From: Parvibacter caecicola
Lineage (GTDB): Bacteria > Actinomycetota > Coriobacteriia > Coriobacteriales > Eggerthellaceae
Direction: 5' to 3'
Assembly: GCF_003725335.1 (NCBI RefSeq)
Contig: NZ_QIBY01000007.1
Span: 50,719-114,718 of the forward strand
Length of the DNA stretch: 64,000 nucleotides
Positions 34,186 through 55,267 of the stretch are shown here, in pieces. The translations under genes were made by a program, and so were the position numbers. The first letter of the stretch is position 1. Every line of letters starts with the position of its first letter. The notes below the pieces were generated by a model. It made no database searches. It saw only the letters and a list, made by a program, of their open reading frames with translations, and had not been told where the DNA came from.

Positions 34186-34186
34186 C

Positions 34187-35419
34187 GTGGAGTGCTTCAA
34201 CGGAAACAGCTCGTACAGTATCTTCGAGAACCTAAAAGCACGCCTTAAGGAAGATATATCTGAGTTAAAAGCTGAAGAGTTGGATAGCACTGACAGGGAT
34301 GCCTGGGTGGACTATTGGGAAAACGAATACTATTGCCCTCCTGTTGAGCTTTATCCCGACAACGCTGAGCTTGGCCTGACCCAACAATCGGTTCAGCAAT
34401 ACAATAGCTGGCATCATGCTGCATGGGACGAGCCCGAATACTTTGAAGTTGAAGGCGCTAGGGCAACCTGCAAGGTCCCATATTCCGGGACCCCGTGGTT
34501 CTTTAAGATGCAGCCGTCAACCTTCACGCTTTCAGGCCATTATGCCGAGAAGGTCACCGATCCAGGATCAGATGGTTTTGGTTACATTACCTTTGCCCTA
34601 GAAACCCCACTCGGTAGCGCCACGCCCGAGGGAATACGAAAGTTCTTTTCGGATCAAATAGAAGACTTCTCCGAGCAAATTGAGTGCTGCAACAAGGACG
34701 CGGAAAGCTACAACAATTCTCTTAGGCAAATCATCGAAGCAGCTTTAGACAAAAGGATTGAGCAACTTGATAAGTTCGCTTCCCTTCGACGAGGACTGAA
34801 TCTTCCCTTAAATCGCGTAAAAGATGCTCCTTTGGCCATGCCTCTTCACTTACAAAAGAAGACCCTGAAAGTTTCAAGGCCTGAAAAGATCCCAAGCGCC
34901 GAGCAATCCTACTCTATTGATGACGCAACATACAAACACATAACAGATGTAATAGAAAGCTCCGGAGCCATGATGGAGAGAGCTCCCGAGGCTTACAACG
35001 GCATGGAAGAAGAGCATCTAAGGGATGTGCTATTGAGCGCCCTGAATACTCATTACCAAGACCAAGTGAACGGCGAGGCTTTTCGCAGACATGGAAAGAC
35101 GGACATTCAGATTCCCGTCAACAATCATGCTGCGTACATCGCGGAATGCAAGCTGTGGAAGGGGCCAAAGGCTTTCAAGGACGCGCTCGCACAACTGTTC
35201 TCATATACGACGTGGCGCGACACCAAGGTATCCGTAATCGTATTCAATAAGAAGAACAAAAACTACGAGAAAGTGCTCGACGCAATTGACGAAGTTTTGG
35301 AGGGAGAATCGATTACTTGCGATCGACACAAGCACTCTCAGTGGCTTTGCAAAATACAGAACGAAGAAGATGAAAGGATTATGCACGTAACGGTCCAGGT
35401 TTTCGATTTGTCCTTATAG
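34187..35419 (+). CDS. Hypothetical protein with C-terminal PD-(D/E)xK-like motif
   Basis: GTG start 1 nt after the res stop. TDIQIP...IAECKLWKG fits D...ExK. No other recognised domain. Confidence 0.5.
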   Translation: MECFNGNSSYSIFENLKARLKEDISELKAEELDSTDRDAWVDYWENEYYCPPVELYPDNAELGLTQQSVQQYNSWHHAAWDEPEYFEVEGARATCKVPYSGTPWFFKMQPSTFTLSGHYAEKVTDPGSDGFGYITFALETPLGSATPEGIRKFFSDQIEDFSEQIECCNKDAESYNNSLRQIIEAALDKRIEQLDKFASLRRGLNLPLNRVKDAPLAMPLHLQKKTLKVSRPEKIPSAEQSYSIDDATYKHITDVIESSGAMMERAPEAYNGMEEEHLRDVLLSALNTHYQDQVNGEAFRRHGKTDIQIPVNNHAAYIAECKLWKGPKAFKDALAQLFSYTTWRDTKVSVIVFNKKNKNYEKVLDAIDEVLEGESITCDRHKHSQWLCKIQNEEDERIMHVTVQVFDLSL

Positions 35420-38938: not shown

Positions 38939-41900
38939 ATGGAAGTAGCCTCGACGCTTGTCTCACTTGCCAGCAAATTAGGCCTGTCAAGCTTATTGGA
39001 TAAAGTCAAAAAATGTAAAAAGAACAGGAAGCTACATCAGATTCGAGAAGATTATCTAACTAGGTCTACATTTGTATCATTCCAACAAGCGCCTCTTTCA
39101 GATTTATTTCAAAATAATGCTTTGTGCGAAGAGCTAATTGCCCATTGTCGCAAAGGCGACTTAGCAAAATCCGCAGTAGTTAATACTTTTCTTTACTCTT
39201 CAAAAGAGGCCCCCTCCGAAGGGCGCTTCTTTGATGCGGAAAAGCTTGTAGGTAATTTTTTTGATGAAGTGGCTGCCGTAATATTCCAGCCAATTGACAA
39301 AAAAGACGAACCCCTTTCTGCAGCGATACAAGAAGGCATCGCCGAAACCAGAGAACTTCAGTCTGACGTTCAGCAGAGCTATAAACAAATGGAAGCGAAG
39401 GTTGATGCTCTAACGGCATCTTTGACAGAGCAACTTGGCTTCTCTTCGCTGACGTTACTCATAAATGCAGTAGAAGACGGGTCGGTTTTGTTTGCCGATT
39501 TCGAATCTGCAGTTGAGACCGATAAAAGTAATAGTGTTTCAGGCAAATATCTTTCTGTATACCTCTCTCTATGTAAAGGTGAAAACCCATGCTTTGATAT
39601 ATCGGACTTCAAGGTCATTGGAACTCCTCTTGCTTCCTCACTGGCTTCGTTGGCAATTTCGACAGGGCAATTGAACACCGCCGTCTGCGTTCTTGGCCTC
39701 TATGACGAAGGAGCCAATTGCGCTAAGGCTGTTGGGGAGATTATTAATAATCCAAATATCGATGAAGAAACGAATCGATATGAGATTGCCGCAGATTCCC
39801 CTTTCTCGCCTTTTGCATGCGTTTTGAATGCCGAGCTCGCATTCATGAACAAAGCCTACGTAATTGCAGACGATCAATTCGCATTGTGCGAAGGGCGACT
39901 TAATCCAGTAGCAAAATGTCATAGTGACATTTCACGCATATGCAAAGCAATGCAGTATTCATTGACTTCTATTTCTCCTGATGACGTAAGGAACTTTGCC
40001 GGGGATTTCCCACTGTGGGGTAGCACATCGCTAAAACATGAATATGGAGAAATCCTTGAAGTTGCTCTTGATCTGATTGGCGAAACAAGTGCAGCGGAAA
40101 TCATTTCGTCTCTTCCTGAGGAAGCGCTGCAACACTTGCCAAACGCACAGCTTCAAGCAGAGATAAGCACGTGCGACGATATCGATAGATTGAGACACTT
40201 ATGCGAAAAGTCGTTGATAAAGCAGCTTTTCCCTGCATTCTTTACATGCGCAGAAGAACTTATATCCAAAGATCCCTCTTGCACGTTGTGGTTAAAACAA
40301 CTGGTAGAGAAGGAGGCTGAGAATGTTTTGGTCAGCAACTTTCTTTTCTTCCTCTTCTATGTCGATAAATTGAATCCATGCGTCTCTTATGAAGAGTACA
40401 AGTACCATGAAAGCTGTTACAGAAATGACCCTCGATTTCATCTGCATGCATACAGGCTGTTTAAGAGCAGCAACCCCGAAGAGGCCTGCAGCCATATCGA
40501 AATGGCACTAAGTCTAATGGCCGCAGGGCAGACATTACCGTGCCCAGACTATTCGAGAGAATGGGTTTGCTATCTTCATGAAAACGAACGTGACTTTCAG
40601 GTGATCGACCTAGTCAGACGATTCGCACCCGTAATTCCCGCAAGGGCTTTCAAGTCAATCGCATTTGCTATAGAAGAACCGTTAGATAAATCGGTTCTCG
40701 CAAGAGAGCTCTTCGAGTTGCTGGAGCAATCGGAGAACGATGATCCGGAGCTGACATGCTTGCTTGCGCAGTATCATGGATTTGTTGCAAATGATCAGCT
40801 TAAAGCGCTCAAGTTCGCAAAGCTATCCTTCAAAAAGCGCCCCTCTCTCGACGCAGCACGGTCCCTGGTTTATGCATCACTTGGCTTATCGTTAGGCATC
40901 CCCGAAGAAGTTGAGCAGTATGCTCTCAATCAAAAGAGCACAGAGCTCGACATGCTCATCGCCGAGCATTACCGGAGAGAGAAAAAGGACTCAAAAGCAG
41001 ATTATCTTTTAAAGCGAGCTATTTTTGATAATAGACCAGACTCCCACCGCGCAATTGCCGCATACGGCTGCAGCCATTTGAGCGATGCCGAGAAAGAGAA
41101 ACCAACTAAGATTGACCACAATACCTGCGCATGCTTGGAAAACAAGGAATCGGGACAGCTGGTCGTAGCTTTTCACTCGGAATCTGATTTGATTCCGAGT
41201 GAAGGAGTTAATGCTCTCGGGATGCAGAACTACACAACAGCATCTCCCCAATATCTTGCAATGCGAGATCATGCCGTTGGAGATCGCGTGCAACTTGGCT
41301 CAGAGTACTGGGAAGTTGTAGACGTAAACAACGTAGATGACGTCATCGGAAAAAAGACCATGGAGATAATCGCAGAAGACCCCTCAACGGTGGTCTTCTC
41401 TTCCCCTGATGGAGACATCGAAGATGTGATTCGGCAAATCTCTGAATACATGGAAGAGCACAAACAGCAGAGCAACGTTTATTCTGACGGCATTCGAGTT
41501 AACGATGGCACAGTTGTTTTTCTGGGGATCGAGACAGGGTGTGCGCTCTACCCCATCAAGCCATTTGAGTTTATCCTAAATGTGCTCAAAGGGGATGATG
41601 TCCCATTTCGGAGAATAGAAATAGGCTTTTCTTCTCCCATGACAGGGGAAGAGACGTTTCTTCTCTCTTATAATGCCATCGTTCTTCTGGCTGCTCTTGA
41701 AGAGCTAGGCGTCGACTGTGACCCAATCATGAGTCGTTGCAGCATTACCACATCAACGAAAAAACGTCTGCAGCTAGACATTCAAGATTATTCTGATTCG
41801 TTATACGGCGCTGGGAAAATGGTTTCAGTCGATGGACGCGCCACTCTATTGCAGTATGACGCTGCAGCCAAGCAAGAACTGAGCGCAATTTGCGCAAATA

Positions 41901-42280
41901 CATTAGGCTTTCTTAACAAATTGAGACAAGTTGAACTTGCTCAGATCGATAAGCTTCCTTCAAGTTTCCCGTTTCTTGACCAGAATACGCTAGGCGACAT
42001 GGAAACGGCAAGACAAGGTGGGATGTTTTATGTGACAGAAGACTGTTTTCAGGCGCTTTTCTCTGATATTTCCGAATCCGCCCCTCAGAGATGCAGTCTG
42101 TACAGTCTTCTTATTGCACTCGGAATGAGGGAAGCCGCCCTGTTTGCACTTCCGAAAGCAATGCACCAGTGGGGAGCCGATCCGTATGTTGATGTCAATG
42201 TTGCTAACGTGGTAATTCAGATTCTTGAGTCGTTTACGCAAGGCGCCGGAAGCCCCATACCAAATGAACAAGATACGTAA
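38939..42280 (+). CDS. Large hypothetical protein (1113 aa), AT-rich, predicted alpha-helical
   Basis: Long uninterrupted ORF at about 42% GC in a high-GC genome. No Walker A motif and no recognisable catalytic motif. Confidence 0.5.
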   Translation: MEVASTLVSLASKLGLSSLLDKVKKCKKNRKLHQIREDYLTRSTFVSFQQAPLSDLFQNNALCEELIAHCRKGDLAKSAVVNTFLYSSKEAPSEGRFFDAEKLVGNFFDEVAAVIFQPIDKKDEPLSAAIQEGIAETRELQSDVQQSYKQMEAKVDALTASLTEQLGFSSLTLLINAVEDGSVLFADFESAVETDKSNSVSGKYLSVYLSLCKGENPCFDISDFKVIGTPLASSLASLAISTGQLNTAVCVLGLYDEGANCAKAVGEIINNPNIDEETNRYEIAADSPFSPFACVLNAELAFMNKAYVIADDQFALCEGRLNPVAKCHSDISRICKAMQYSLTSISPDDVRNFAGDFPLWGSTSLKHEYGEILEVALDLIGETSAAEIISSLPEEALQHLPNAQLQAEISTCDDIDRLRHLCEKSLIKQLFPAFFTCAEELISKDPSCTLWLKQLVEKEAENVLVSNFLFFLFYVDKLNPCVSYEEYKYHESCYRNDPRFHLHAYRLFKSSNPEEACSHIEMALSLMAAGQTLPCPDYSREWVCYLHENERDFQVIDLVRRFAPVIPARAFKSIAFAIEEPLDKSVLARELFELLEQSENDDPELTCLLAQYHGFVANDQLKALKFAKLSFKKRPSLDAARSLVYASLGLSLGIPEEVEQYALNQKSTELDMLIAEHYRREKKDSKADYLLKRAIFDNRPDSHRAIAAYGCSHLSDAEKEKPTKIDHNTCACLENKESGQLVVAFHSESDLIPSEGVNALGMQNYTTASPQYLAMRDHAVGDRVQLGSEYWEVVDVNNVDDVIGKKTMEIIAEDPSTVVFSSPDGDIEDVIRQISEYMEEHKQQSNVYSDGIRVNDGTVVFLGIETGCALYPIKPFEFILNVLKGDDVPFRRIEIGFSSPMTGEETFLLSYNAIVLLAALEELGVDCDPIMSRCSITTSTKKRLQLDIQDYSDSLYGAGKMVSVDGRATLLQYDAAAKQELSAICANTLGFLNKLRQVELAQIDKLPSSFPFLDQNTLGDMETARQGGMFYVTEDCFQALFSDISESAPQRCSLYSLLIALGMREAALFALPKAMHQWGADPYVDVNVANVVIQILESFTQGAGSPIPNEQDT

Positions 42281-42450: not shown

Positions 42451-43780
42451 CGTACAATCTCTTGCGCACTTTGACAGCAGCATAGTCTAGATACCAAAAG
42501 ACACGGCTCTGGCCTTCGGTATGATTTGAGTGTCGAATTCAATCATGCTAGGAGGCTGAGCCATGTCCGATCCCATCGTATCATTCGACGAGGCCGCCAT
42601 GCGCGGCGAGCTCAAAGAACTCGTCCGCCAGACGGTCGAGGACACCCTGAACGCGCTTCTCGAGGAGGAAGCCGACGACCTCATAGGCGCAGACCGCTAC
42701 GAGAGGACGGCCGACCGCGAGGCGTACCGCGCCGGCCACTACGAGCGGGGGCTCACCACCACATCGGGGCAGGTCATACTGAAGATGCCCAAGCTCAAGG
42801 GCATGAGGTTCGCAACGGCGATCATCGAGCGCTACAGGCGCCGGGAGACCTCCGTGGAGGAGGCCATGATCGAGATGTACCTGGCCGGGGTGTCCACCAG
42901 GCGCATCGAGGACGTCTCCGAGATACTCTGGGGCTCGTCGGTGTCCGCCGCCACCGTGTCCAATCTCAACGAGAGGGCGTTCGAGGCCGTCGAGGAGTGG
43001 AGGAGCAGGCCGCTGACCCGCCCCTACCCCTACGTCTTCGTCGACGGCATCTACCTCAAGCGCTCCTGGGGCGGCTCGTTCGAGAACGTGGCCGTGATGG
43101 TGGCCATAGGCGTCAACGACGACGGCTACCGCGAGGTGATAGGCGCCGCCGAGGGCTTCACCGAGTCCGCCGAGTGCTGGCGGGAGTTCCTCTCGTGGCT
43201 GAAGGGCCGCGGCCTCTCCGGCGTGCGCATGTTCACCGGCGACAAGGCCGCCGCCATGACCGGGGTCATCGCCGAGGTGTTCCCAGAGGCTGCCTATCAG
43301 CGCTGCACGGTGCACTTCTACCGCAACGTCCTGGCCAAGGTGCCGAAATCAAAGAGGAGCCAGGTGGCGGCCATGCTCAAGGCCATCCACTCCCAGGAGT
43401 CGCTGGAGGCCAGCATGGAGAAAGCCAGCGACGTCGCCGCCAAATTGGACGGCATGAGGCTGGCGGCGGCAGCCAAGTGCGTTCGCGACGGCATCGCGGA
43501 GACGCTGACCTACACGCGCTTTCCAATGCGGCACTGGCGTCGTATCCGCACCAACAACGCCATAGAGAGGCTGAACCGCGAGATCCGCCGCCGCACGCGA
43601 GTGGTGGGCACGTTCCCCGACGGTAAGAGCGCCCTCATGCTGGTGATGGCCAGGCTCAAGTACGTGGCCGACAGCGAGTGGGGATCGAGGAGGTACCCGG
43701 ACGTGTCGCTGCTGGGCGAGTGATCATGCCGACGGCTGACCGCCGGCTGCTGGAATTTGCGCAAGAATCTGGACAGTACC
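42446..43780 (+). mobile_element. IS256-family insertion sequence, about 1.33 kb
   Basis: Imperfect terminal inverted repeats GGTAACGTACAATCTCTTGCGCAC..CAGCAGC (left) and GCTGCTGG..TGCGCAAGAATCTGGACAGTACC (right) flank a mutator-type transposase. GC content is higher than in neighbouring DNA. No target-site duplication was found. Confidence 0.75.
42563..43723 (+). CDS. IS256-family (mutator-type) transposase
   Basis: 386 aa with family signatures YERGLTTTSGQVILKMPKLKG and FPEAAYQRCTVHFYRNVLAKVPK. Confidence 0.9.
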   Translation: MSDPIVSFDEAAMRGELKELVRQTVEDTLNALLEEEADDLIGADRYERTADREAYRAGHYERGLTTTSGQVILKMPKLKGMRFATAIIERYRRRETSVEEAMIEMYLAGVSTRRIEDVSEILWGSSVSAATVSNLNERAFEAVEEWRSRPLTRPYPYVFVDGIYLKRSWGGSFENVAVMVAIGVNDDGYREVIGAAEGFTESAECWREFLSWLKGRGLSGVRMFTGDKAAAMTGVIAEVFPEAAYQRCTVHFYRNVLAKVPKSKRSQVAAMLKAIHSQESLEASMEKASDVAAKLDGMRLAAAAKCVRDGIAETLTYTRFPMRHWRRIRTNNAIERLNREIRRRTRVVGTFPDGKSALMLVMARLKYVADSEWGSRRYPDVSLLGE

Positions 43781-43887: not shown

Positions 43888-44673
43888 CTACAAACGCTGA
43901 CATCTTGCAGGCTGCTTAATAGCTTTTTCAATTTGAGGAGTGATGCAGTTCACAGCTTCTAAGAGCTGCGAGCGAAAGTCATCCAGGCTCTTTTGACCAT
44001 ATATGGCCAGAATGGCGCATTCGACTTCATCACCGAATTCATTCCCTATGGAAGCTACTTCGTTGAACAATTCGTCGATTTCGACGACAAGCTCTCGATC
44101 CAGTTCGTCAACCTGTTGACTAGATGCATAGAATGTGGATTGGCAGTCCAGCTCGATAATTTGCGTTCTGCATTTCAGCATTTCACACATGCAATTTAGA
44201 CGATAAATTCTAGGGTCCAAATTCATAGCCATACTGCGTAATTTATTTAGTGAACCAACCTTTTTCTTGCTAAGAAAAAGGTTATCGTCGATTTCAGTGC
44301 AGATAAGATTCGCGTAGTGCATACCCGGGCCATTAATACAGCTCAAACATGGCGCAAAGAGCTTTGGAGGTATTTTGTATTGACGTGCAAATTCAAACGA
44401 TATAATCAACTGCTTCAAGCATCCCGAGAAGGCTATGCAAAGCTCAAAGAGCATGACTTTTTGTTTTCGTAACCCAATTTTTAGCTCACACAATGATGTT
44501 GCAACGGCCAAGAAAGCACCTGAAATAAAACCCGTTAACAGTCCTAGAATACAGCTATAGTACCGGTCATCAAGAGATAAGAGCGGCAACAATAGCATGG
44601 CAACAATTCCCAGTCCTCCAATTGCCATGCAGATGAATAATGTATATCTACGCGTTTTCAAGTTGGTCCTCAA
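43888..44673 (-). CDS. Hypothetical membrane protein
   Basis: 261 aa with N-terminal TM helices. AT-rich. Confidence 0.4.
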   Translation of the reverse strand: MRTNLKTRRYTLFICMAIGGLGIVAMLLLPLLSLDDRYYSCILGLLTGFISGAFLAVATSLCELKIGLRKQKVMLFELCIAFSGCLKQLIISFEFARQYKIPPKLFAPCLSCINGPGMHYANLICTEIDDNLFLSKKKVGSLNKLRSMAMNLDPRIYRLNCMCEMLKCRTQIIELDCQSTFYASSQQVDELDRELVVEIDELFNEVASIGNEFGDEVECAILAIYGQKSLDDFRSQLLEAVNCITPQIEKAIKQPARCQRL

Positions 44674-44948: not shown

Positions 44949-45266
44949 TCAACTTTCCCGTTTAGAAAGACCCAACGAATTCATCCTTGATTGGACTCTG
45001 CTCAATTCAGTATTTAACTGTGTAACGTATGCCGCACATACCTCTCCATAAAGATCATGCACGCGTTCTTCTGGAATATCAGCAACGACCTGAATATCTT
45101 CATTGACCATCTGCGCTAGAAGTGCATCGAAGACGCTCTTTACTTGCTCCTCGTTGGTCTCGTCATCTAAATTCAAATCTTGATCTGCTCCCCCAATATT
45201 GAAGCGAAGAATATTATTTCCATTTTCTCTTTGAGTAAGCACCGCTTTAACAACTTGCACTGTCAT
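44949..45266 (-). CDS. Small hypothetical protein downstream of the Ppl-like gene
   Basis: ORF overlapping the 3' end of the Ppl-like gene. No motif. Start uncertain. Confidence 0.25.
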   Translation of the reverse strand: MTVQVVKAVLTQRENGNNILRFNIGGADQDLNLDDETNEEQVKSVFDALLAQMVNEDIQVVADIPEERVHDLYGEVCAAYVTQLNTELSRVQSRMNSLGLSKRES

Positions 45267-47370
45267 AAATATAGCCTCTCTCATCAAAAGCTTCACGGCC
45301 GCCTTCAAGTGTTCGTAAACTGGTTTCGGTCCAATTCAAGCTATTGGATTGATCAGTAATATCGGTCAGTTTATCAACGAACGGATTTCCGATATATGTT
45401 CTGTATTCATCACCTGAAACATGCTCTCTGTAAATTGATCTATAAGGTAAACATCTCACTGCAATGTTTGCGTTATGCGTTGCGACAACAACTGTTTTGT
45501 TCAATCGCCCCAATTCAATGAGCTTTGGCCTGATCGAATCTTCAATAAACGTATTTCCCATGCCGAGCTCAGGCTCGTCTATCAAATAGAAACTTGCCTC
45601 TCGATCCAAAGCCCTACGAAGCAACAAGATACCCTTCTCCCCATTGGAGGGCTCGTATTTTTTGCCATCCTTAGTAGTTAGGAATCGATCAACTCCTACA
45701 AAACAGTCGAGATTTATGTACCCCGACCCTTCAAGAAGGTCTGTTAGTTTCTTTAAGCTATTACGATAATCAATCTTCAGAGCATTCTTATTCGCTGCTT
45801 TAAATGCCGCTACATGATTCTTAACTTGAGTATATGTTCCGGAATAATGGTCTTTCGTGCTATTTCCTGAAAACATGCTCCACTCAGTCGTAATGAACAA
45901 ATCGCCCTTTCCGTCAAGCGGTCCGAGATATTCTGGATCCGACTTTGTGGGGGCTTCAAGCGCAGAGCAGATACAGCGTAATGCATGGGCTAATTCAAGT
46001 CTGGCACATGCATATGCTTCAAACCCAACAGTTGTCGGGATAGGCTTCGAACCTTTGCTTCCTGCAACTAGCGTCTTTAAAGTATTAATCGTGAACTCAG
46101 AGACTTTAAGGGTTTCGACTCTTACGAATTCTTTCGTCTGTTTTTCAATTATCTTGGCTTCTAGGATGCCAAGTATTGCTTGCAGAGTCTGCTCTTCATC
46201 TTGCGTTAGGTATTTTCCAAGATCGATCTTTGCTATCGCCTTTTTTATTGCATCAGCATTATTCGCATCGTTCCCAAGCGAAGTTAACTCGGTTTCATCG
46301 GGGACTCCAAAGCTGGTCATTTTAACGATACACATCTTGATTTTCGCATCATCATTTCCATTGGTTCTTATCCAATCAAGATAGTCTTTAATGGGTGTTA
46401 CCGCTGGCTCATTCCAGTTCAAGATTGTTGAAAAGTCATTTTCGCAAGAATCGACTCCTAAGACCGCAGCAGACCTAGTAACTGTTGTCTTCTCAAGTAG
46501 TTTTGCCAAATCTTCATCTCGCTTGGATCCGGCATAGTGAACGCATCGTTTGCCCTGGAGCTTAAGTTCGCTTGCAATAGAGTCCAATATCCTACTCTTG
46601 CCAGTACCTTTTTCGCCAAAGACAATATTGACGTCATTGTAGATTTCAAGATTGAAACTTTCGTTATCAACTGGATGTATCGTGAAGGGCGAGAGGGTTT
46701 TTGCGTCCAGTAAATGCTGAACCACGGTAGTATCACGTTTGGCAAGCATTTTTAACTGTTCAAAACTGCTTACAGGGAGTCGAAGCTCCGCGAAATTACA
46801 TTCTTCGTAATGAGCCCAGTCTCTGACATCGCTTCCAATGATCATATTGTCGCCATGGAAAGCGCAGATGCCTACAGTCCTCAGATCTTTAGGCTCCAAA
46901 AACAGCCTTTCCCTGGGCACTAATTCTTCGAATAGCTTTTTATCTTCCTCGCCAATGGCCTTTGCTTTATCCGCATAATGGGGGATGAATAAAGTATTGA
47001 GCGCAATAAAAGCTGCCACTATCTCTTCGAGATCCGCAGAGAAATCATCAGGTTTTTGACCATTAATTAGTTTTGAAAGTGCTTCGTTAAAGCTATCAAC
47101 TTCAGCAGGATCTGCAACTACAATCACATGAAATGCTTTGCTCGCATTCTTCGATATTCCATCTAGTTCCACTCCTGGCCAGACTATGCATATATCTTGG
47201 TTTGAAAAATCTTGGTATTGTTCGAAATCGAAATCGTTATGGTTGGTGATTGCAATTAAATCGACACCAGCCAGTTCTGCTTTTTTACATAACAATTCCT
47301 TATCTACATTGCGTGACACCGGATCTCCGCTTTTGGTTTTATTCGTATGGCAGTGAAGGTCAATTCTCAT
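45247..47370 (-). CDS. PHP-domain plus ABC-type ATPase protein (Ppl-like single-gene anti-phage protein)
   Basis: N-terminal PHP fold (MRIDLHCHTNKTKSGD...LIAITNHND). Walker A GEKGTGKS and Walker B FYLIDEPELGMG (AAA_21/OLD-like). Confidence 0.7.
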   Translation of the reverse strand: MRIDLHCHTNKTKSGDPVSRNVDKELLCKKAELAGVDLIAITNHNDFDFEQYQDFSNQDICIVWPGVELDGISKNASKAFHVIVVADPAEVDSFNEALSKLINGQKPDDFSADLEEIVAAFIALNTLFIPHYADKAKAIGEEDKKLFEELVPRERLFLEPKDLRTVGICAFHGDNMIIGSDVRDWAHYEECNFAELRLPVSSFEQLKMLAKRDTTVVQHLLDAKTLSPFTIHPVDNESFNLEIYNDVNIVFGEKGTGKSRILDSIASELKLQGKRCVHYAGSKRDEDLAKLLEKTTVTRSAAVLGVDSCENDFSTILNWNEPAVTPIKDYLDWIRTNGNDDAKIKMCIVKMTSFGVPDETELTSLGNDANNADAIKKAIAKIDLGKYLTQDEEQTLQAILGILEAKIIEKQTKEFVRVETLKVSEFTINTLKTLVAGSKGSKPIPTTVGFEAYACARLELAHALRCICSALEAPTKSDPEYLGPLDGKGDLFITTEWSMFSGNSTKDHYSGTYTQVKNHVAAFKAANKNALKIDYRNSLKKLTDLLEGSGYINLDCFVGVDRFLTTKDGKKYEPSNGEKGILLLRRALDREASFYLIDEPELGMGNTFIEDSIRPKLIELGRLNKTVVVATHNANIAVRCLPYRSIYREHVSGDEYRTYIGNPFVDKLTDITDQSNSLNWTETSLRTLEGGREAFDERGYIYDSASC

Positions 47371-47376
47371 TAATTC

Positions 47377-47865
47377 CTACTTCCCCGAATATGGGCTCTT
47401 GCCGTCATCGGTCTTAACCCATGTTCCGTTATCCCAGGTGCGCTTCCACTCTGCGTACTCTTCTTTAGTGATCTCGTGATTGTCGAGCTTCTGACGCATC
47501 TCTTCCCAATCACGAACGAACTCTGCGAAGAAGTCCATTGCAGAGCCGTAGCCCTTAACAATGGCGGGCACGCCGTCAATTTCACGCACGGTATAGCCGA
47601 ACGCGTCCTCATTCTCCAGGATCGCGTAAGCGAATTCGCGCCTGTTCCTGAACGTGGGCGCACTCAGATACTCAGGCCTCACCCCTAGCGCCCTTGCGAT
47701 CCGGTCCAGAATCTCCGGCTTGGGATTACGGTCGCCGAGCTCGTATGCACGGTAAGCCGACTCGGTTATCTTCGCCTTATCAGCCACCTCTTTCTGGGTG
47801 AGGTGAAGCTCATCGCGCAAAGACTTCAGCTTCTTCGCAAGGCTGGGAACTTCCTTTTTCTTCAT
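47377..47865 (-). CDS. XRE-family HTH transcriptional regulator
   Basis: LTQKEVADKAKITESAYRAYELGDRNP HTH_3 motif. Its stop lies 6 nt before the start of the Ppl-like gene. Confidence 0.8.
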   Translation of the reverse strand: MKKKEVPSLAKKLKSLRDELHLTQKEVADKAKITESAYRAYELGDRNPKPEILDRIARALGVRPEYLSAPTFRNRREFAYAILENEDAFGYTVREIDGVPAIVKGYGSAMDFFAEFVRDWEEMRQKLDNHEITKEEYAEWKRTWDNGTWVKTDDGKSPYSGK

Positions 47866-47892: not shown

Positions 47893-48043
47893 GCCTGACA
47901 AATTGTCAGGAGTACAGGGTACCACCTCACGCAAATGTGAGCAAATTTCTCCATTTCCGTTGACATCACAAATATGTGAGGTTATAGTCAACCTAAGACA
48001 TCACAAAAACGTGATGTTACGCCAACAAACGAAAGGAGACCCT
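47893..48043. promoter_or_regulatory. Divergent control region with repeated GACATCACAAA boxes and palindromes CTCACGCAAATGTGAG, CACAAATATGTG and ATCACAAAAACGTGAT
   Basis: Repeats seen directly between the divergent XRE and excisionase-like genes. Confidence 0.45.
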
Positions 48044-48259
48044 ATGGGAACAAGGCTAATGAGTGCAACGGAGGTCGCGGAGCAGCTGGGCACCTCCAAG
48101 GCGTACGCCTACAAGGTGATTCGCAAGCTTAATGCGGAACTGGCGAAGAAAGGGTGCCTAATCGTCCAGGGAAAAGTGAGCCGAATGTATTTTGAGGAGC
48201 GCTACTTTGCTGGCGAACCAATGCCAGCACCCGAGCAAGGAGCCAGCAATGTCCGTTAG
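48044..48259 (+). CDS. xis: Excisionase-family / MerR-like small DNA-binding protein
   Basis: 71 aa reading MSATEVAEQLGTSKAYAYKVIRKLNAEL. Immediately upstream of, and overlapping, the integrase. Confidence 0.6.
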   Translation: MGTRLMSATEVAEQLGTSKAYAYKVIRKLNAELAKKGCLIVQGKVSRMYFEERYFAGEPMPAPEQGASNVR

Positions 48260-49364
48260 CAAAGATCGTGAACGCGGAACGTTCTACGTCCAGTGCCGCT
48301 ATAAAGACTGGACGGGCGAACCCAAGAAGAAGACCAAGCGCGGCTTCAAGACGGAGAAGGAGGCGCGCAAGTGGGAGTACGAGTTCCTGAAGCGCATGGA
48401 GGGCGCACCGACAATGCTCTTCTCCGAGTTCTATCAGGTGTACGCCGCGGACGTGAAGCCCCGTCTGCGCAGGAACACCTGGGAGAGCAAGGCGCACATG
48501 ATCGAGACGAAGATCCTGCCCTATCTCGGCAACAAGCGCGTGAACGAGATCTCGTCGCTCGACATCCTCAACTGGGAGAACGAGCTGCTCGCAATGCGCA
48601 CGTGCAACGGGCTGGAATACTCGCAGACCTATCTCCATTCGATCTGCAATCAACTCTCGGCCATGCTCAATCACGCCGTTCGCTACTACGGCCTCACGGT
48701 GAACCCGATGGCCAAGGTCGGCAAGATAGGCAGCAAGCAGGCTGACGAGATGAGCTTCTGGACGAAAGACGAGTACCTAAGGTTCAGCAGGGCGATGATG
48801 GACAAACCGCAATCCTTCATAGCCTTCGAGATTCTCTACTGGTGCGGACTGCGCCTCGGCGAGTTGCTCGCGCTCACGCCAGAGGATTTCGACTTCGAGG
48901 CTAAGAGGCTGTCGATCACCAAGAGCTACCAGCGCATGCACGGCGAGGACGTCATCACGGCACCGAAGACGCCCAAGTCCGCCCGCTCGATCGTCATGCC
49001 AGAGTTCCTCGTTGGTGAAGTTATCGACTTCATGAGGTGCATCCCCGACCTTCGAAACGACGACCGCCTGATTCCCGTCACCAAGTCCTTCTTGCACCAT
49101 GAGATGGATCGCGGCGCGAAGGCAGCCGGAGTCAAGCGCATTCGGATTCACGATCTGCGACACAGTCATGTGTCGCTTCTGATCGAACTCGGCTATTCCG
49201 CTCTCGCGATTGCCGACAGGCTGGGTCACGAGAGCACCGAGGTGACCATGCGTTACGCGCACCTCTTCCCAAATAAGCAAGAGGACATGGCTTGCGACCT
49301 TGACGTCCAAAGAGGCAGTGCGGAATCCCCATTCGATATGGCAAGACCCATGAAACAGGCCTAG
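48249..49364 (+). CDS. int: Tyrosine-type site-specific integrase
   Basis: N-terminal arm-binding-type domain, and C-terminal catalytic R...HDLRHSHVSLL...RYAHL with the tyrosine. SD AGGAG. Confidence 0.9.
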   Translation: MSVSKDRERGTFYVQCRYKDWTGEPKKKTKRGFKTEKEARKWEYEFLKRMEGAPTMLFSEFYQVYAADVKPRLRRNTWESKAHMIETKILPYLGNKRVNEISSLDILNWENELLAMRTCNGLEYSQTYLHSICNQLSAMLNHAVRYYGLTVNPMAKVGKIGSKQADEMSFWTKDEYLRFSRAMMDKPQSFIAFEILYWCGLRLGELLALTPEDFDFEAKRLSITKSYQRMHGEDVITAPKTPKSARSIVMPEFLVGEVIDFMRCIPDLRNDDRLIPVTKSFLHHEMDRGAKAAGVKRIRIHDLRHSHVSLLIELGYSALAIADRLGHESTEVTMRYAHLFPNKQEDMACDLDVQRGSAESPFDMARPMKQA

Positions 49365-49378
49365 GAAAGGAGATCCAG

Positions 49379-49759
49379 ATGTCAGAGAAGAACCTGGATG
49401 CGCACGGCAGGCAGCGAAGCAAGACAATCTCGTTTCGCATGTCGCCCGAAGAGGCGAACCTGCTCGATAACCTCGTTGCCATTAGTGGGCAGAAGAAACA
49501 GGACTACATTATCCGGAAGCTGCTCGACAGAAGAATCGTCGTCGTGCCATCAAGCCGCATGCAGAAGGGCATGGAGGAGGCAATGATGCTCGTCTATCGC
49601 GAGCTGACAAGGCTGACGAATTGCGCCGACGCCACGCCGGAGCTAATAGCGCTCACGGACAGCGTTGCCACGATCTTCGCTGGGTTTAGCGAGAAGTCCA
49701 CCAATATCCAGCTGGCAAGCGACGAAAGCGCCATCAAGAATCTGAAGAGGGAACCGTAA
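49379..49759 (+). CDS. MobC-like / ribbon-helix-helix mobilisation accessory protein (putative)
   Basis: The segment KTISFRMSPEEANLLDNL resembles relaxosome accessory proteins. Confidence 0.45.
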   Translation: MSEKNLDAHGRQRSKTISFRMSPEEANLLDNLVAISGQKKQDYIIRKLLDRRIVVVPSSRMQKGMEEAMMLVYRELTRLTNCADATPELIALTDSVATIFAGFSEKSTNIQLASDESAIKNLKREP

Positions 49760-50769
49760 TGCGACAGCTGACAGCAAGAACAGCCCAAGAGTTACTGGAA
49801 GACCCCATCGAGGAAGCGGACTGGGTCATCGAGGACTTGCTGCCTGTGGGAGCGCATATACTGGCTGGCGCACCCAAGATTGGAAAGTCCTGGATGGTGC
49901 TCGCTATGGGGCTTGCCGTGAGCATGGGCCAACCGTTCTGGGACTATACGGTATGCCAAGGAGCGGTTCTCTACCTCTGCCTTGAAGATACGTATTCCCG
50001 AGTTAAAAAGAGGTTATGGAAGCTAACAGACGAGGCTAACGACAGGTTCTACCTTGCCAACTCGGCAGCCACGATCAAGGACGGCCTGGCGGCGCAGATC
50101 GAGTATTTCGTCATTACCCATCCAGACCTGAAACTCGTGTTCATCGACACGTTCCAGAAGGTTCGAAGCCCAACCGGCGACAGCATCTATGCTGCCGACT
50201 ACAGCGACTTCTCGGCACTGAAGGCGATTGCCGACAAGCACGGTCTGGCGATGATGGTGGTGCACCATACTCGCAAGATGGCAGACGAGGACGTCATGAA
50301 CACTGTATCGGGTTCGAGCGGAATCACGGGCAGTGCGGACAGCATCTGGGTACTGAGGCGAGCGTCGCGTGGCGTTGGGGACGCGACGCTCACGGTTACC
50401 GGACGAGATGTGGAGTTTCGAGAGCTGAAACTTGCGCTCAGGGATTGTCGTTGGAACCTTATCGAGCGCACGAGCGAGGAGGAGTTTGAGGAACGGGACG
50501 TGCCCGACTGCGTACTGAAGGTGGTCGAGTTCATGGCGTTAAGCACAAATGGGTCATGGCAGGGCTCCGTCGGAGACCTGATCAAGGCAGCAGGGGCCGA
50601 GGGAGTGACCACCGCGACGTTTGGCAAGTTCCTCGCACAGCACAGTGTCTTCATGAGGTCGCGCGGGATTGTCTACAGCAAGAAGCACACCAGCGCCGGG
50701 CAGCAGATCACTCTAGAGAAGACCGCCTGTGAAAGAAGTGAAGGCGATGAAGGCTGCGCTCGGGTATAG
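49759..50769 (+). CDS. AAA-family ATPase (RepA/DnaB-like, primase-associated type found on integrative elements)
   Basis: Walker A GAPKIGKSW and Walker B LVFIDTF. Confidence 0.65.
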   Translation: MRQLTARTAQELLEDPIEEADWVIEDLLPVGAHILAGAPKIGKSWMVLAMGLAVSMGQPFWDYTVCQGAVLYLCLEDTYSRVKKRLWKLTDEANDRFYLANSAATIKDGLAAQIEYFVITHPDLKLVFIDTFQKVRSPTGDSIYAADYSDFSALKAIADKHGLAMMVVHHTRKMADEDVMNTVSGSSGITGSADSIWVLRRASRGVGDATLTVTGRDVEFRELKLALRDCRWNLIERTSEEEFEERDVPDCVLKVVEFMALSTNGSWQGSVGDLIKAAGAEGVTTATFGKFLAQHSVFMRSRGIVYSKKHTSAGQQITLEKTACERSEGDEGCARV

Positions 50770-50888
50770 GGTTCAGCTTTCACAGCCTTCACGGCTTTCA
50801 TCCTCGGAGGCGTTGAGAAGCGTTTTAAGGCTTCACTTGGCATCAATCCGAGGAACAAGCCGCTCTAAGGCCTTAGGAGTCTTTATTC

Positions 50889-51038
50889 GCAAGTAGCCCA
50901 TAGCGTATTACCTTTGCGGGCCGCTATGGCGAATTCTAGCAAGTAGCCTATTGGCGTATTACGTTTTCACGCGCCATAGGCAACTTTAGCAAGTAGCCCA
51001 TGGCGTCCGACAACGCCAAAGCGACTTGCCGAATTCGG
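50889..51038. repeat. Three 50-bp tandem direct repeats, each starting GCAAGTAGCC[CT]AT and each containing an internal imperfect palindrome; candidate res/accessory site for the downstream resolvase, or iterons
   Basis: Units begin at 50889, 50939 and 50989, seen directly. They lie immediately upstream of the serine recombinase gene. Confidence 0.55.
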
Positions 51039-51131
51039 GAAACTGGCCGGCGACGGCTTACGCCGTCCGCTTCCCAGTTTGCGGGGGATCCCCCGCGCCC
51101 CTTAATCAATCTCAAAAGAAAGGAGCCATTC

Positions 51132-51746
51132 ATGGACTATGGATATGCACGAGTCTCCGCGAAAGATCAAAGTCTCGCAAGACAGCTTGATGCGCTACGA
51201 GAGCTCGGCTTGGACGACAGTGCGATCTTCACCGATAAGGCGAGCGGGAAGGATTTCAACCGTCCCTCCTATCGCCAGTTAATGCGAAGACTCAAGCCGG
51301 GTGATGTGATCTTCGTTAAATCGATAGACCGGCTGGGACGCAACTACCAAGAGATAATCGCAGAATGGCGAAACATCACGCAGAAGAAAGGCGCGCATAT
51401 CGTCGTGCTCGATATGCCGCTACTCGATACACGAAACGACAAAGGCGAGATCACGAGCGTCTTCATCACTGATGTGGTGCTTCAACTCCTCTCCTATGTC
51501 GCGCAAGTTGAACGCGAGAATATCAAGCAAAGACAGGCTGAGGGAATAGCGTCTGCAAAGGCGCGTGGAGTTAGGTTCGGACGACCTAAGATCGAACGGC
51601 CGGGCATTTATCTCAAGACGAAGCGCGCCTATGAAAATGGAGCCATCACCCGAAAAGAGGCGGCTGACCGTCTGAAGATAAGCATAACTACTTTCGATAA
51701 CTGGATGAAAGAGGACAGGAAAGCATTGCTGAGCGAGACCGCCTGA
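51132..51746 (+). CDS. Serine recombinase (resolvase/invertase family)
   Basis: YARVSAKDQSLARQ catalytic-serine motif. Resolvase fold and C-terminal HTH. SD AAAGGAGCC. Confidence 0.9.
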   Translation: MDYGYARVSAKDQSLARQLDALRELGLDDSAIFTDKASGKDFNRPSYRQLMRRLKPGDVIFVKSIDRLGRNYQEIIAEWRNITQKKGAHIVVLDMPLLDTRNDKGEITSVFITDVVLQLLSYVAQVERENIKQRQAEGIASAKARGVRFGRPKIERPGIYLKTKRAYENGAITRKEAADRLKISITTFDNWMKEDRKALLSETA

Positions 51747-51917: not shown

Positions 51918-53039
51918 TTGAATCTTATAGATGTGATCAAATACGAAGGTGATAACAAAACCTTTGTTTGGAAATATCCCGAAGAGGATTTTAATACTGG
52001 TTCTCAACTCATAGTCCATGAAGCGCAAGAGGCTATTTTCTTCTTAAATGGAGAAGCGCTCGATTCGTTTAAACCTGGCAGATACGAGCTAGAGACCCAG
52101 AACATCCCGTTATTAAGTAAAGTTATAAACATTCCATCAGGAGGCGAAAGCCCATTTCATGCTGAGGTCTACTTCATAAACCTCGTAGAACAAATGGGTA
52201 TAAGCTGGGGAACAAACTCAAAAATCCAGTTTATGGAACCAGAGTTCAATTTTCCTCTTTCAATTGGCGCATCAGGAGAGATGGCAATTGCTGTCAGAGA
52301 GCCTAAGAAACTCCTCCTAAAAATTGTGGGTACTGAAGCAATTCTTTCACAAGAAGAGTTAATCAAATACCTTAAGTCCTTTCTTCAGACGAGGATAAAA
52401 GCTGCCATAGCTCAGGCGATACCCGAAAACTCGCTCTCTATTTTCCAAATGGATGCACAGCTAGTTCTTTTATCAGACGAAGTAAAAAAGCACCTTCAGC
52501 CCGACTTCAAAGAATACGGCCTGGAGCTTACTCAAATGATGATTACGACAATCGTTAAGCCCGAGGGCGACCCCATTTATGAGCAATTTAAGGAGCTGTT
52601 TTTTCGGCAGTATGCGGATGTAAAAAACGCTCAGATCAACCAGCAAGTTGGCGTGATTAACCAGGAGACGGCAGCTAAACAGACAGTTATTGAGGCCAAG
52701 GGGGTCGCAGAAAAGCGCCAAATTGAAGGATATACCTATCAACAAGAACGTGGATTCGACGTGGCGGAGCAAATGGCTCAAAACGAAGCGGTTGGTGAAT
52801 TCGCGAATATGGGAATAGGCCTTGGGCTGATGTCAGGAGTGGGCGGCACTATGGGATCTGTAGTTGGGGGCGCGGTTTCTGAGGCAATCGGAGAGAACCA
52901 ACTGTTTGGAGGTTCTATCTATCCCGGCGTCGCCTCGCCTGATACCGAAGGATCCTTGCCTCAATTTTGCCCGAATTGCGGCAAACAATTCTCATCAAAT
53001 GACAATTTTTGTCCTCAATGCGGGAATAAGAGGGGCTAA
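51918..53039 (+). CDS. SPFH/band-7 domain protein with C-terminal double zinc ribbon
   Basis: TTG start after GGGAG. SPFH-like N-terminal half, and a CPNCGKQF...CPQCGNK zinc-ribbon C-terminus. Confidence 0.7.
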   Translation: MNLIDVIKYEGDNKTFVWKYPEEDFNTGSQLIVHEAQEAIFFLNGEALDSFKPGRYELETQNIPLLSKVINIPSGGESPFHAEVYFINLVEQMGISWGTNSKIQFMEPEFNFPLSIGASGEMAIAVREPKKLLLKIVGTEAILSQEELIKYLKSFLQTRIKAAIAQAIPENSLSIFQMDAQLVLLSDEVKKHLQPDFKEYGLELTQMMITTIVKPEGDPIYEQFKELFFRQYADVKNAQINQQVGVINQETAAKQTVIEAKGVAEKRQIEGYTYQQERGFDVAEQMAQNEAVGEFANMGIGLGLMSGVGGTMGSVVGGAVSEAIGENQLFGGSIYPGVASPDTEGSLPQFCPNCGKQFSSNDNFCPQCGNKRG

Positions 53040-53044
53040 AAAGT

Positions 53045-53710
53045 ATGGAAAACAAAGCAACCCGCACTACAATAATTGCTCTAATAGTTGGATTCGCAGT
53101 TTATTTCTTAATATGTATGCTGCTTTTTGAGGCATCGTTTTCGTTTTGGGCTGAGCTCGGCTTCGCCTTAGTCGCATTTGCAGCCTGCGCCTTTGTAATA
53201 CTCAAACAAAAACAAACACCGAGATTCTTCCTCAAACTGCCCATTTATACAGTTGCCGCCGCATATCTGATAGGCCAATTGATTGTAAGCACGCTATTTA
53301 TGATTTACCCAACCCTCTGCAATCCTTGGGGATATGCAATAAGCATTCTCCTATTTGGCGGTTTTCTTTGCGTTGCCTTGACAAGCCAAGCATCGACTGA
53401 ACATATCGCTTCTATTGATTCCCAAATCAATGAAGATACTTCCTTTATTAAAAATCTGGTAATGCATCTCGAAGCTCTGAAAGAAACGCTTCCTAATAAT
53501 CAGGATTGCGTTAACGAGCTTATTGCAATAGCTCAGTTCTCTAACCTGCGGTCATGCAAGAAGGCTCAGCCGGTGGAACAAATTATTCAAGCCCATATCA
53601 ATGAGCTCTTAGCTGATGCAAAAGCAGGAAAAACTGAAGCTCTTGATAGTCGCTGTGATGAATTGAAGAAACTTCTTCAACAACGCGACCAGTTATGTAT
53701 ACGAAAGTAG
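53045..53710 (+). CDS. Hypothetical membrane protein (4 TM) with cytoplasmic coiled-coil tail
   Basis: Begins 5 nt after the SPFH gene stop. Confidence 0.5.
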   Translation: MENKATRTTIIALIVGFAVYFLICMLLFEASFSFWAELGFALVAFAACAFVILKQKQTPRFFLKLPIYTVAAAYLIGQLIVSTLFMIYPTLCNPWGYAISILLFGGFLCVALTSQASTEHIASIDSQINEDTSFIKNLVMHLEALKETLPNNQDCVNELIAIAQFSNLRSCKKAQPVEQIIQAHINELLADAKAGKTEALDSRCDELKKLLQQRDQLCIRK

Positions 53711-53717
53711 GGCGATT

Positions 53718-53957
53718 ATGAATCATGCCAAATGGCTAGAGCAGGCAAGGCAATACTTAGATACCAATGTCAAAGTTGGTCAAACATTTGAATGCAAATC
53801 ACTATTTCCTGAGCACAAATGGAATCAGCTAACACGAGGCGAAAGAATCAGTTTCGGACAATACTTTGCTAATGAGGTCAAAGAGGGACGCATTCCTGGC
53901 GTAATACGTATCGATCGCGCAAAGAATAATCACAGTATTTATAAAAAGGACAACTAA
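53718..53957 (+). CDS. Small hypothetical protein, DUF1413-like
   Basis: 79 aa. Resemblance to DUF1413 (FECKSLFPEHKWNQLTRGERISFGQYF) is tentative and recalled from memory. Confidence 0.35.
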   Translation: MNHAKWLEQARQYLDTNVKVGQTFECKSLFPEHKWNQLTRGERISFGQYFANEVKEGRIPGVIRIDRAKNNHSIYKKDN

Positions 53958-55267
53958 TGAAAGCTATACAGTGTGAATTATGTGGTGCAACAGACATTGT
54001 CAAAGACGGAGACTTTTTTGTTTGCCAAAGCTGCGGGATGAAATATACACCTGAAAACGCAAAGAAGATGATGGTAGAGGGAGTTGTTCAGGTCGAAGGA
54101 ACAGTCAAGGTTGATAATACTCAGCAAATCGAAAACTTCTTATCCTTAGCAAGAAAGGCGCATGATTCAGATAATGAAAAAGAAGCTGAAGACTACGCAA
54201 ACAAAGTTTTAGAGATAGAGCCGACAAACTATGAAGCTCTCTATCTAAAGGGGATTGCAGCTGGTTGGCAAACTACTGGTGGCAACAATAGAATTCCAGA
54301 AGCAATTGACTACTTCTCTCAAGCGATTGCCAATTGTTCCGAAGATGCAAATGCAGATGAGCTGAAAAAGCAGATCGCAGAAGATATTAGCAAGCTTTCA
54401 TTGGCGATGATTAATCTACGCTGCAAGAATTATATTCAATTCCCATCTTCAGAAAACGCTTCCTCAATAGTCACAGAAGCAGCTAACTCCATTATTCTAA
54501 CGATGAAGCTCATTCTATCATGTGGAGTAGAACCAAATAAATTCAAGGCTGATGCAGCCTTGGTAATGAACGCCGCTGCCGTACAAGCCTGGAAGACAAT
54601 ATGGTCAGACTACACCGACGACAAACCGTTGTTGCCTCTTGGAAATGGCATCATGTTTCAAGACTACAAAACTGCCTCATCCAGCGATCGCTCACTATAT
54701 GCCATCCCCTCTAAATATGACTGGAACAGATTTACCGACCGTGGAGATGGGTGCATTTCAGTAATTGAAGCAGCGATCAATATTGACGACAATGATGATG
54801 AAGAGGATATAACTAGGTATGAAAACCTCATATTTATTGCCGAAAAGGTACGAGATTCCTGTTCAATCGGGTATATCTCGGGGAGTCAATACGTTAGTGC
54901 AAAATGGGCAAAAGAATACGCATTTACCGATTCTGCAATCGCTGCGCGAAATAAGAAAATAGCCGAATGGCAAAGCGCTAAGGCTGACTCGGAACAACGA
55001 ATACGCCAGAACAGAATCAATAAATACTGGGATGCGCATCAAGAGGAACGAGCTAGTCTTGAAGCTTCGATAAAACAGCTTAAGGAAGATCTGATTAAGC
55101 TAAAAAGTGATGAGCAGTATTCGGCGACCAAGGCAAAGATTTCTTCTCTTTCAGGCGAAATAGAAATAAAAGAGAAGCAACTTAGTGCGTTGGGAATCTT
55201 GGATCGCAAAGCAAAGAAAGAACTAAAAAGCGAGATTGAGTCTTTGAGAAGCGAAAAGATAACTTAG
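53957..55267 (+). CDS. Zinc-ribbon plus TPR-like repeat protein with C-terminal coiled coil
   Basis: N-terminal CELCG...CQSCG zinc ribbon, then a TPR-like region (EALYLKGIAAGW). TAATG 1-nt overlap with the upstream gene. Confidence 0.5.
   Translation: MKAIQCELCGATDIVKDGDFFVCQSCGMKYTPENAKKMMVEGVVQVEGTVKVDNTQQIENFLSLARKAHDSDNEKEAEDYANKVLEIEPTNYEALYLKGIAAGWQTTGGNNRIPEAIDYFSQAIANCSEDANADELKKQIAEDISKLSLAMINLRCKNYIQFPSSENASSIVTEAANSIILTMKLILSCGVEPNKFKADAALVMNAAAVQAWKTIWSDYTDDKPLLPLGNGIMFQDYKTASSSDRSLYAIPSKYDWNRFTDRGDGCISVIEAAINIDDNDDEEDITRYENLIFIAEKVRDSCSIGYISGSQYVSAKWAKEYAFTDSAIAARNKKIAEWQSAKADSEQRIRQNRINKYWDAHQEERASLEASIKQLKEDLIKLKSDEQYSATKAKISSLSGEIEIKEKQLSALGILDRKAKKELKSEIESLRSEKIT

Follow-up and report, generated by a model that had tools for sequence, protein, structure and literature searches.

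Ppl, a single-gene anti-phage system of Escherichia coli, consists of a PHP domain and an NTPase and is, according to the summary in PMC12904381, a nucleoside triphosphate (NTP)-inhibited 3'-5' exonuclease of single-stranded DNA (ssDNA) that is activated by, and senses, 3'-OH overhangs. The mechanism, reported by Xu et al. (Mol Cell 2026) according to the summaries in PMC12904381 and PMC13434339, sets a precedent for proteins that combine a PHP domain with an NTPase, since it shows that they can act against viruses as exonucleases gated by NTP (PMC12904381; PMC13434339, ref. 51). PDC-M49 is a two-gene candidate cassette (FAM_00021>>FAM_01695 or FAM_00021>>FAM_02682) and belongs to 145 phage defence candidates that were obtained by guilt-by-embedding in BREX, DISARM, and type I restriction-modification (RM) systems (Payne et al., 2024, bioRxiv 10.1101/2024.01.29.577857). 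Here, a locus of Parvibacter caecicola is compared with these systems. It is located in a stretch of 64,000 nucleotides (nt) of contig NZ_QIBY01000007.1, which is referred to as the window, and comprises three closely packed open reading frames (ORFs) within positions 44949-47865, in the order XRE-type regulator, gene for a protein of 707 amino acids (aa), and small ORF:

47377..47865, minus strand: XRE-family helix-turn-helix (HTH) regulator, 162 aa, with an HTH_3 domain and an uncharacterised C-terminal half
45247..47370, minus strand: large subunit, PHP and ABC/SMC-type ATPase, 707 aa (motifs and predicted fold)
nt 47370-46696, minus strand: N-terminal PHP metal-dependent phosphoesterase of the large subunit, ~aa 1-225 (motifs and predicted fold)
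nt 46695-45247, minus strand: ABC/SMC-type ATPase of the large subunit (motifs and predicted fold)
~aa 300-560 of the large subunit, minus strand: helical coiled-coil insertion that splits the ATPase head
aa 640-707 of the large subunit, minus strand: conserved C-terminal domain following the ATPase head
44949..45266, minus strand: small acidic partner gene, 105 aa, isoelectric point 4.4 (homologue alignment)

The stop codon of the XRE gene is separated from the ATG of the large gene by 6 nt (GAATTA). The original prediction, which had been made from the sequence alone, was accurate with respect to the three ORFs, their positions, and this spacing, but had given the downstream ORF a length of 100 aa. 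With moderate confidence, the large and the small gene are interpreted as a two-component nuclease-ATPase defence module, in which the small protein would be a stoichiometric gating or sensing partner and which would be repressed by the XRE protein in the Parvibacter lineage.

The large protein and its overlapping partner gene

The database record identical to the 707-aa protein is a hypothetical protein of P. caecicola. The protein contains the motifs DLHCHT, TNHND, GEKGTGKS, and LIDEPELGMG. In an alignment of 33 family sequences, whose identity to the window protein ranged down to 36%, the PHP residues H6 and H8 (DLHCHT), H44 (TNHN), E68, D70, H81, H131, and D181 (GSDVxDW) were invariant, as were the Walker A motif GxKGTGKS (252-259; G252...K258), the signature S575-x-G577-E578, the Walker B residues D598-E599, and the H-loop H632 of the ATPase. 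The protein thus has the conserved His/Asp/Glu metal ligands and the barrel of the PHP superfamily (PF02811), and the Walker A, signature, Walker B with catalytic Glu, and H-loop elements of an ABC/SMC-type ATPase. Judged by this alignment, the PHP and ATPase motifs are real features of the family and not chance occurrences. The original prediction had read the protein as a PHP domain joined to an ABC-type ATPase and had made this reading dependent on motif conservation; both the invariant motifs and the predicted folds bear it out.

An AlphaFold model calculated from the 33-sequence family alignment (mean pLDDT 84.6) has a PHP barrel at its N-terminus and, in addition, an ABC head into which long helices are inserted at approximately residues 360-470. 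The top structural match of the PHP part was EndoQ, a lesion-specific endonuclease, whereas the ATPase part matched UvrA, ABC nucleotide-binding domains, RecN, JetC, cohesin, and Smc heads and resembles Rad50 heads. Since the structural relatives of the PHP part (EndoQ and RNase AM) all act on nucleic acids, the modelled fold supports a nuclease role for the PHP domain. EndoQ and RNase AM (YciV) differ from the window protein in being stand-alone housekeeping enzymes without an ATPase, and the identity is only 15-24%. Sequence profiles were less sensitive: the Pfam matches of the large protein to PHP (E = 0.07) and ABC_tran (E = 0.001) were both sub-threshold, so that the PHP assignment rests on the motifs and the predicted fold. 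In NCBIfam, the TrlF-family AAA-like ATPase model NF045780 matched residues 2-105 only, with 80.6 bits, which is below the curated cutoff of 350. In the PDB, neither the sequence of the window protein nor the profile of its family retrieved more than weak matches to AriA and ABC transporters, and no Ppl or PHP-ATPase entry was found; PHROGs contained zero matches for the large or the small protein.

The small gene was called mechanically as an ORF of 119 aa (45308..44949) starting at a TTG. This start at 45308 was rejected because the homologues align from the ATG at 45266 (MTVQV...), which results in an overlap of 20 nt with the large gene. A Shine-Dalgarno-like GAGAGAGG of the small gene sits within the conserved C-terminal codons of the large gene, and in the locus set described below a GGAGG/GAAAGGA-like ribosome-binding site is embedded in the conserved ERxxIYES C-terminal codons. 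No convincing terminator was found in a scan 3' of the small ORF.

Downstream of the genes for five divergent homologues of the large protein (37-82% identity), a gene of 102-131 aa overlaps the large gene in each case, the four small proteins that were aligned from divergent loci are homologous to each other, and reverse look-ups from small-protein homologues led to an adjoining gene of 702-707 aa. This linkage was quantified by hidden Markov model analysis in a set of 92 loci, including 80 that were fetched from species-representative genomes. In 87 of these loci, the large gene overlaps at its 3' end with, or directly adjoins, a gene for a homologue of the small protein; in the remaining five, either the contig stops at the gene or the large gene is truncated. 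The overlaps are 4 to 26 nt long and cluster at 20, 26, 14, 17, and 4 nt. The possibility that the small ORF arose as a chance overlap was rejected on the basis of this conservation. The two proteins also co-diverge, as the large-large and small-small distances are correlated with r = 0.92 across 73 distinct pairs, a value reached by none of 2000 Mantel permutations; the small partner evolves faster (mean distance 0.68, compared to 0.59 for the large protein). The small gene is a strict core component of the module. For this ORF, the suggestion of the original prediction that the locus works as a multi-gene unit thus receives strong support.

No annotation of the small partner was obtained from the four libraries searched, and it has no recognisable enzymatic motif. 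The partners in the window and in loci L002, L003, and L096 had zero matches to PADLOC models; those in L005 and L095 had weak matches to Cas5/Cas8b only. The structure predicted from an alignment of database homologues is an RNase-H-like half-fold. The small protein is probably a non-enzymatic, stoichiometric subunit.

Comparison with Ppl, PDC-M49, and other ATPase-nuclease systems

In the original prediction the large protein was assigned to Ppl, a label that survives for the domain composition and fails for family membership. Both proteins have a PHP phosphoesterase and a P-loop NTPase in the same order within one polypeptide and share a defence-island context; by analogy, NTP-gated nuclease activity would be a plausible common logic. 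Comparison with the PADLOC profiles, however, gave a negative result for family membership. The Ppl profile (PDLC02208, 894 positions), which was the basis of the comparison, showed no match at E <= 10 to any of three parts of the window protein (PHP, middle, and C-terminal), and Ppl was not among the top 25 PADLOC matches of the whole protein. The window protein is also ~190 residues shorter than the profile. In two homologues the profile matched ~90 residues of the C-terminal ATPase lobe only (E = 8e-7 for homologue P0109, and 7e-3). Finally, Ppl works alone, whereas the window family has an apparently obligate small partner that overlaps and co-diverges with the large gene, and thus does not have the single-gene organisation of Ppl. 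An orthologue of Ppl, acting as a lone NTP-inhibited 3'-5' ssDNA exonuclease next to an incidental small ORF and XRE gene, would explain the matching domain order and the weak lobe match in P0109, but neither the lacking profile match, nor the length difference, nor a PHP part that resembles PDC-M49A only; the partner's conservation is likewise unexpected for an incidental neighbour. This alternative is considered very improbable. By profile comparison, the window protein is not a member of the Ppl family, and Ppl serves as a mechanistic analogy only.

Among the defence models, PDC-M49A was the best match and the only one that matched end to end; for the whole window protein the match is weak but collinear (PADLOC, two stretches, E = 1.4e-32, 111 bits). 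PDC-M49A was also the sole defence model recognised by the PHP piece (E = 1e-20), and in P0109 residues 2-707 were collinear with positions 3-671 of the 674 in PDC-M49A (E = 1e-34). Since the scores of family members (~110-125 bits) are low for a model of roughly 670 positions, the window family is, on profile evidence, probably a distant sister of the candidate family PDC-M49A. The organisation agrees as well: as in PDC-M49, two genes follow each other on one strand in the order A, B, the first encodes a protein of ~675-680 aa in the PDC-M49 cassette, and both families are embedded in or adjoin RM and BREX systems. The difference lies in the second gene, because the small partner was not recognised by the PADLOC v2 models as any PDC-M49 component, and neither PDC-M49B nor another PDC-M49 model matched any of the small partners tested. 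A literature search on PDC-M49, TrlF, and PHP domains with ABC ATPases or phosphoesterases in defence found nothing relevant.

Weak profile matches of the large protein to AriA, PtuA, GajA, and Old were also obtained. In Gabija GajA of the OLD type, PARIS AriA-AriB, and Septu PtuA-PtuB, an ATPase of the same broad ABC/SMC-like class works together with a nuclease and another subunit. In contrast to these systems, the nuclease of the window family would be a fused PHP domain and not TOPRIM or HNH, and the second subunit has only ~100 aa. A TOPRIM domain, which characterises the OLD family, was not found in the large protein by Pfam or PADLOC, and the match to Old was weak (E = 0.0096) and confined to the ATPase lobe. 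On these sequence comparisons, the pair is partly anticipated by the candidate PDC-M49 and would be a new variant of the ABC-ATPase/nuclease defence systems.

The XRE gene and the divergent promoter region

The XRE protein is a member of HTH_3 (PF01381; E = 9.5e-17, 61.2 bits with a gathering cutoff of 23). Only 4 of the 92 loci have a homologous XRE gene immediately before the large gene and in the same orientation: the window, L001, L002, and one Collinsella locus. In L001 and L002, the large protein is 82% and the XRE protein 81% identical to those of the window and the spacing is the same 6 nt, while in the Collinsella locus the gap is 125 nt. The G + C content of the XRE gene is 54.6%, compared to 42% for the pair of large and small gene and ~63-65% for the flanking chromosome. 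The XRE gene was rejected as a core component on account of its occurrence in four loci. Because of this rarity and its deviating G + C content, it is, as far as can be read from sequence, a lineage-specific regulatory add-on outside the core of the module. The three-gene unit considered in the original prediction therefore holds in its small-ORF part, and for the XRE gene it holds locally.

The region between the XRE gene and the divergently oriented neighbouring gene contains the following elements:

47894..48017, no strand: putative operator region between the XRE gene and the divergent gene (palindromes)
47998-48017, no strand: TCAC-N6-GTGA palindrome 1 (sequence read)
47964-47980, no strand: TCAC-N6-GTGA palindrome 2 (sequence read)
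47926-47941, no strand: TCAC-N6-GTGA palindrome 3 (sequence read)
47894-47910, no strand: CCTGACAATTTGTCAGG palindrome (sequence read)
47960-47988, plus strand: TTGACA-17-TATAGT promoter-like site, 11/12 matches, overlapping palindrome 2
48044..48259, plus strand: divergent 71-aa gene with an excisionase/HTH_17-type look (label assigned by eye)

All four palindromes are kept in L001, where the orthologous stretch between the two genes has an overall identity of 86%. The XRE protein probably binds the conserved TCAC-N6-GTGA palindromes, and the 6-nt spacing implies that its gene is probably co-transcribed with the pair. The promoter-like site on the plus strand is directed at the divergent 71-aa gene, and the XRE protein may also, or even mainly, control this promoter. 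The divergent gene, which may be part of the defence module or of an int/xis switch of the mobile element, is 87% identical over 60 aa to a 77-aa gene located divergently from the XRE gene in L001. Beyond it, the window contains ORF 48192-49364, a tyrosine recombinase by eye, and L001 a methylase.

This arrangement allows a different interpretation, according to which the XRE protein mainly represses the excisionase/integrase switch of an integrative element and the pair is co-transcribed cargo without a dedicated three-gene unit. The excisionase-like gene and the putative recombinase directly opposite the XRE gene, the overlap of the best promoter-like site with a palindrome, and the deviating G + C content of the XRE gene would fit such a switch, as does the fact that most family members have no XRE gene. 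On the other hand, L001 and L002 retain the cassette of XRE gene and pair together with the palindromes where no integrase but a methylase follows the divergent gene, and the close spacing suggests transcription together with the pair. A primary role of the XRE gene in such a switch is regarded as rather unlikely.

Genomic context, distribution, and proposed function

All genes beyond the pair vary from locus to locus. A scan of 121 flanking genes with Pfam and PADLOC detected ResIII in 13 genes and, also by Pfam, HsdR, GmrSD, SNF2, BrxL, RloB, DUF6602/NucC-like nucleases, and Dcm methylases; the PADLOC matches included type I REase, PbeA, PDC-S11, HEC-06, mad2, and SspE. Most of the genes on either side of the pair encode restriction, BREX, GmrSD, or comparable defence functions. 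A clade of Lachnospiraceae/Blautia loci (L005-L008, L035, L036, L040, L043) has a gene for a DUF6602 protein of 305-307 aa, a PD-(D/E)xK / NucC-like nuclease (PADLOC E = 1.5e-19), always ~33 nt upstream of the large gene, and an Eco47II RM system with Vsr adjoins in these loci. This protein may be a third, clade-specific component.

The differing G + C contents of the pair, the XRE gene, and the flanking chromosome indicate that the region from ~24 to 56.5 kb of the window is a foreign mosaic island. No tRNA gene that would mark its borders was found. The large gene sits in a defence island, as the window also contains a type III RM cluster, a homologue of PDC-S54 (E = 1.7e-116) directly after this cluster, and a DRT4 gene. 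Features of the island are:

25158-35419, plus strand: cluster of SNF2/HKD helicase (PADLOC C3a139, E = 2.5e-116), DUF4391, type III methyltransferase, and type III restriction enzyme
35573-37120, minus strand: DRT4-type defence-associated reverse transcriptase (PADLOC Drt4, E = 1.3e-202)
38939-42280, plus strand: 1113-aa ORF, G + C ~43-46%, between the DRT4 gene and a putative transposase gene
42563-43723, plus strand: 386-aa ORF, G + C ~61%, IS256-family transposase-like (by eye)
43888-44673, minus strand: 261-aa ORF, 275 nt downstream of the small partner gene and on the same strand
48192-49364, plus strand: tyrosine recombinase-like ORF (by eye)
within 48192-51746, plus strand: 126-aa ORF and 336-aa P-loop protein (49759-50769; by eye)
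51000-51746, plus strand: serine-recombinase-like ORF (by eye)
51918-53039, plus strand: SPFH/Band-7 protein (PF13421, E = 5e-44) with a zinc-ribbon-like C-terminal CxxC...CxxC tail

A similar series of DUF4391, methyltransferase, and ResIII-family restriction enzyme genes is located directly upstream of the pair in L009. The 1113-aa ORF had no match in Pfam, PADLOC, NCBIfam, or PHROGs and could be an uncharacterised defence gene. The 386-aa ORF is inserted in the low-G + C part of the island between this ORF and the module. The 261-aa ORF, with predicted N-terminal hydrophobic helices, a coiled-coil-like C-terminus, and a weak match to the C-terminus of BrxC (E = 9e-4) as its sole match, is absent downstream of the pair in L001 and L002. 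The run of ORFs in 48192-51746 looks by eye like mobile-element genes and may mean that a small integrative element carries the cassette of XRE gene and pair at its border. The two ORFs following the SPFH protein (53045-53710 and 53957-55267) had no matches.

An exhaustive profile search for the family of the large protein retrieved 316 clusters, formed at 50% identity, with E < 1e-30, a number that rose to 790 with E < 1e-10; among the best 150 matches the full-length members have ~690-745 aa. The distribution is patchy, as a pattern scan found the family in ~110 of 185,579 species genomes, and only 3 matches were obtained in 2.9 million viral contigs. The hosts belong to the Clostridia, Bacilli, Negativicutes, Coriobacteriia, and Saccharibacteria, with a concentration in gut and rumen anaerobes. 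The Saccharibacteria loci are L047, L053, L055, L058, L060, and L075, the last of which ends within the large gene so that only this gene is visible. One contig of a Methanobacteriota metagenome-assembled genome (L085, 2040 bases) carries the pair, which could reflect cross-domain transfer or a binning error. Pairs also occur on plasmids of Clostridium (large protein 37.5% identical; partner inferred from the record annotation), Photobacterium damselae (30.4%), and Staphylococcus aureus (27.6%), the partners of the latter two being recognisably homologous. The module is horizontally mobile and most likely directed against phages or other mobile DNA.

These data also bear on the question whether the pair might serve a non-immune purpose. 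A DNA repair or processing factor of the host or of a mobile element, similar to SbcCD/Mre11-Rad50 or to EndoQ, would agree with EndoQ as top structural match and with the resemblance of the ATPase to UvrA, RecN, and Rad50 heads. The patchy distribution, the G + C content foreign to the host, the variable and mostly defence-type flanks, and the occurrence on plasmids make this explanation very unlikely. The main rival to a defence role is that the pair keeps plasmids and islands stable as a toxin-antitoxin or addiction module, with the nuclease-ATPase as toxin, the small acidic protein as antitoxin, and any effect on phages being secondary. The partner is indeed small, acidic, faster-evolving, and translationally coupled, the pair is found on mobilisable plasmids and in S. 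aureus between Fst-type toxin genes, and the upstream XRE regulator, with HTH matches of HipB, MqsA, and PezA type, recalls many toxin-antitoxin operons. However, most type II antitoxin genes precede the toxin gene and the small gene is located downstream of the large one, nearly all loci have no XRE gene, and the neighbours are overwhelmingly restriction and defence genes and not plasmid maintenance genes. Such a role is deemed improbable; moreover, gating as in toxin-antitoxin systems and defence by abortive infection are compatible with each other.

The most likely function of the pair is that of a two-component nuclease-ATPase immune or abortive-infection module. In the proposed mechanism, the first gene would provide a PHP-fold metal-dependent nuclease and a Rad50/OLD-like ATPase with a coiled-coil arm in one chain, and the second gene an acidic protein of ~100 aa that is translationally coupled to the first and would be its stoichiometric partner. 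The ATPase would dimerise and read a nucleic-acid feature or a nucleotide level, and would then license degradation of the invader's nucleic acid, and possibly also that of the host, by the PHP domain. The small partner would either restrain the complex or supply the recognition of the trigger, and the XRE repressor, bound to the TCAC-N6-GTGA palindromes, would shut off both the divergent promoter and the operon to which its own gene belongs.

Several points weigh against this interpretation. The pair in the window is not embedded in another system, the PHP profile score is 13.9 bits with a cutoff of 26.4, and another residue takes the place of the last canonical PHP histidine (GSDVxDW). It is also conceivable that the XRE gene acts mainly in the neighbouring integrase/excisionase switch. 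The low numbers of viral contigs (3) and species genomes (~110) may be listed here as well, but say nothing either way on function.

A more specific form of the defence interpretation is put forward tentatively, as a possibility that falls short of even chances. The pair would then be a genuine anti-phage or anti-plasmid system mechanistically distinct from Ppl, namely a single-chain, Mre11-Rad50-like PHP nuclease/SMC-type ATPase that is inactivated or targeted by an infection-sensing acidic subunit of ~100 aa that has no known relatives and adopts an RNase-H-like half-fold, and that spreads on islands and plasmids across the Bacillota, Actinomycetota, Saccharibacteria, and Pseudomonadota.

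The pair would add a two-component branch to the defence proteins that combine a PHP nuclease with an ATPase, of which only the single-gene Ppl has been characterised so far, and the small partner defines a new family. The family of the large protein is sizeable, and its hosts are mainly gut and rumen anaerobes, in which few defence systems have been tested. Because the gene overlap is conserved and the two proteins co-diverge, a clear prediction can be made that they form an obligate complex.

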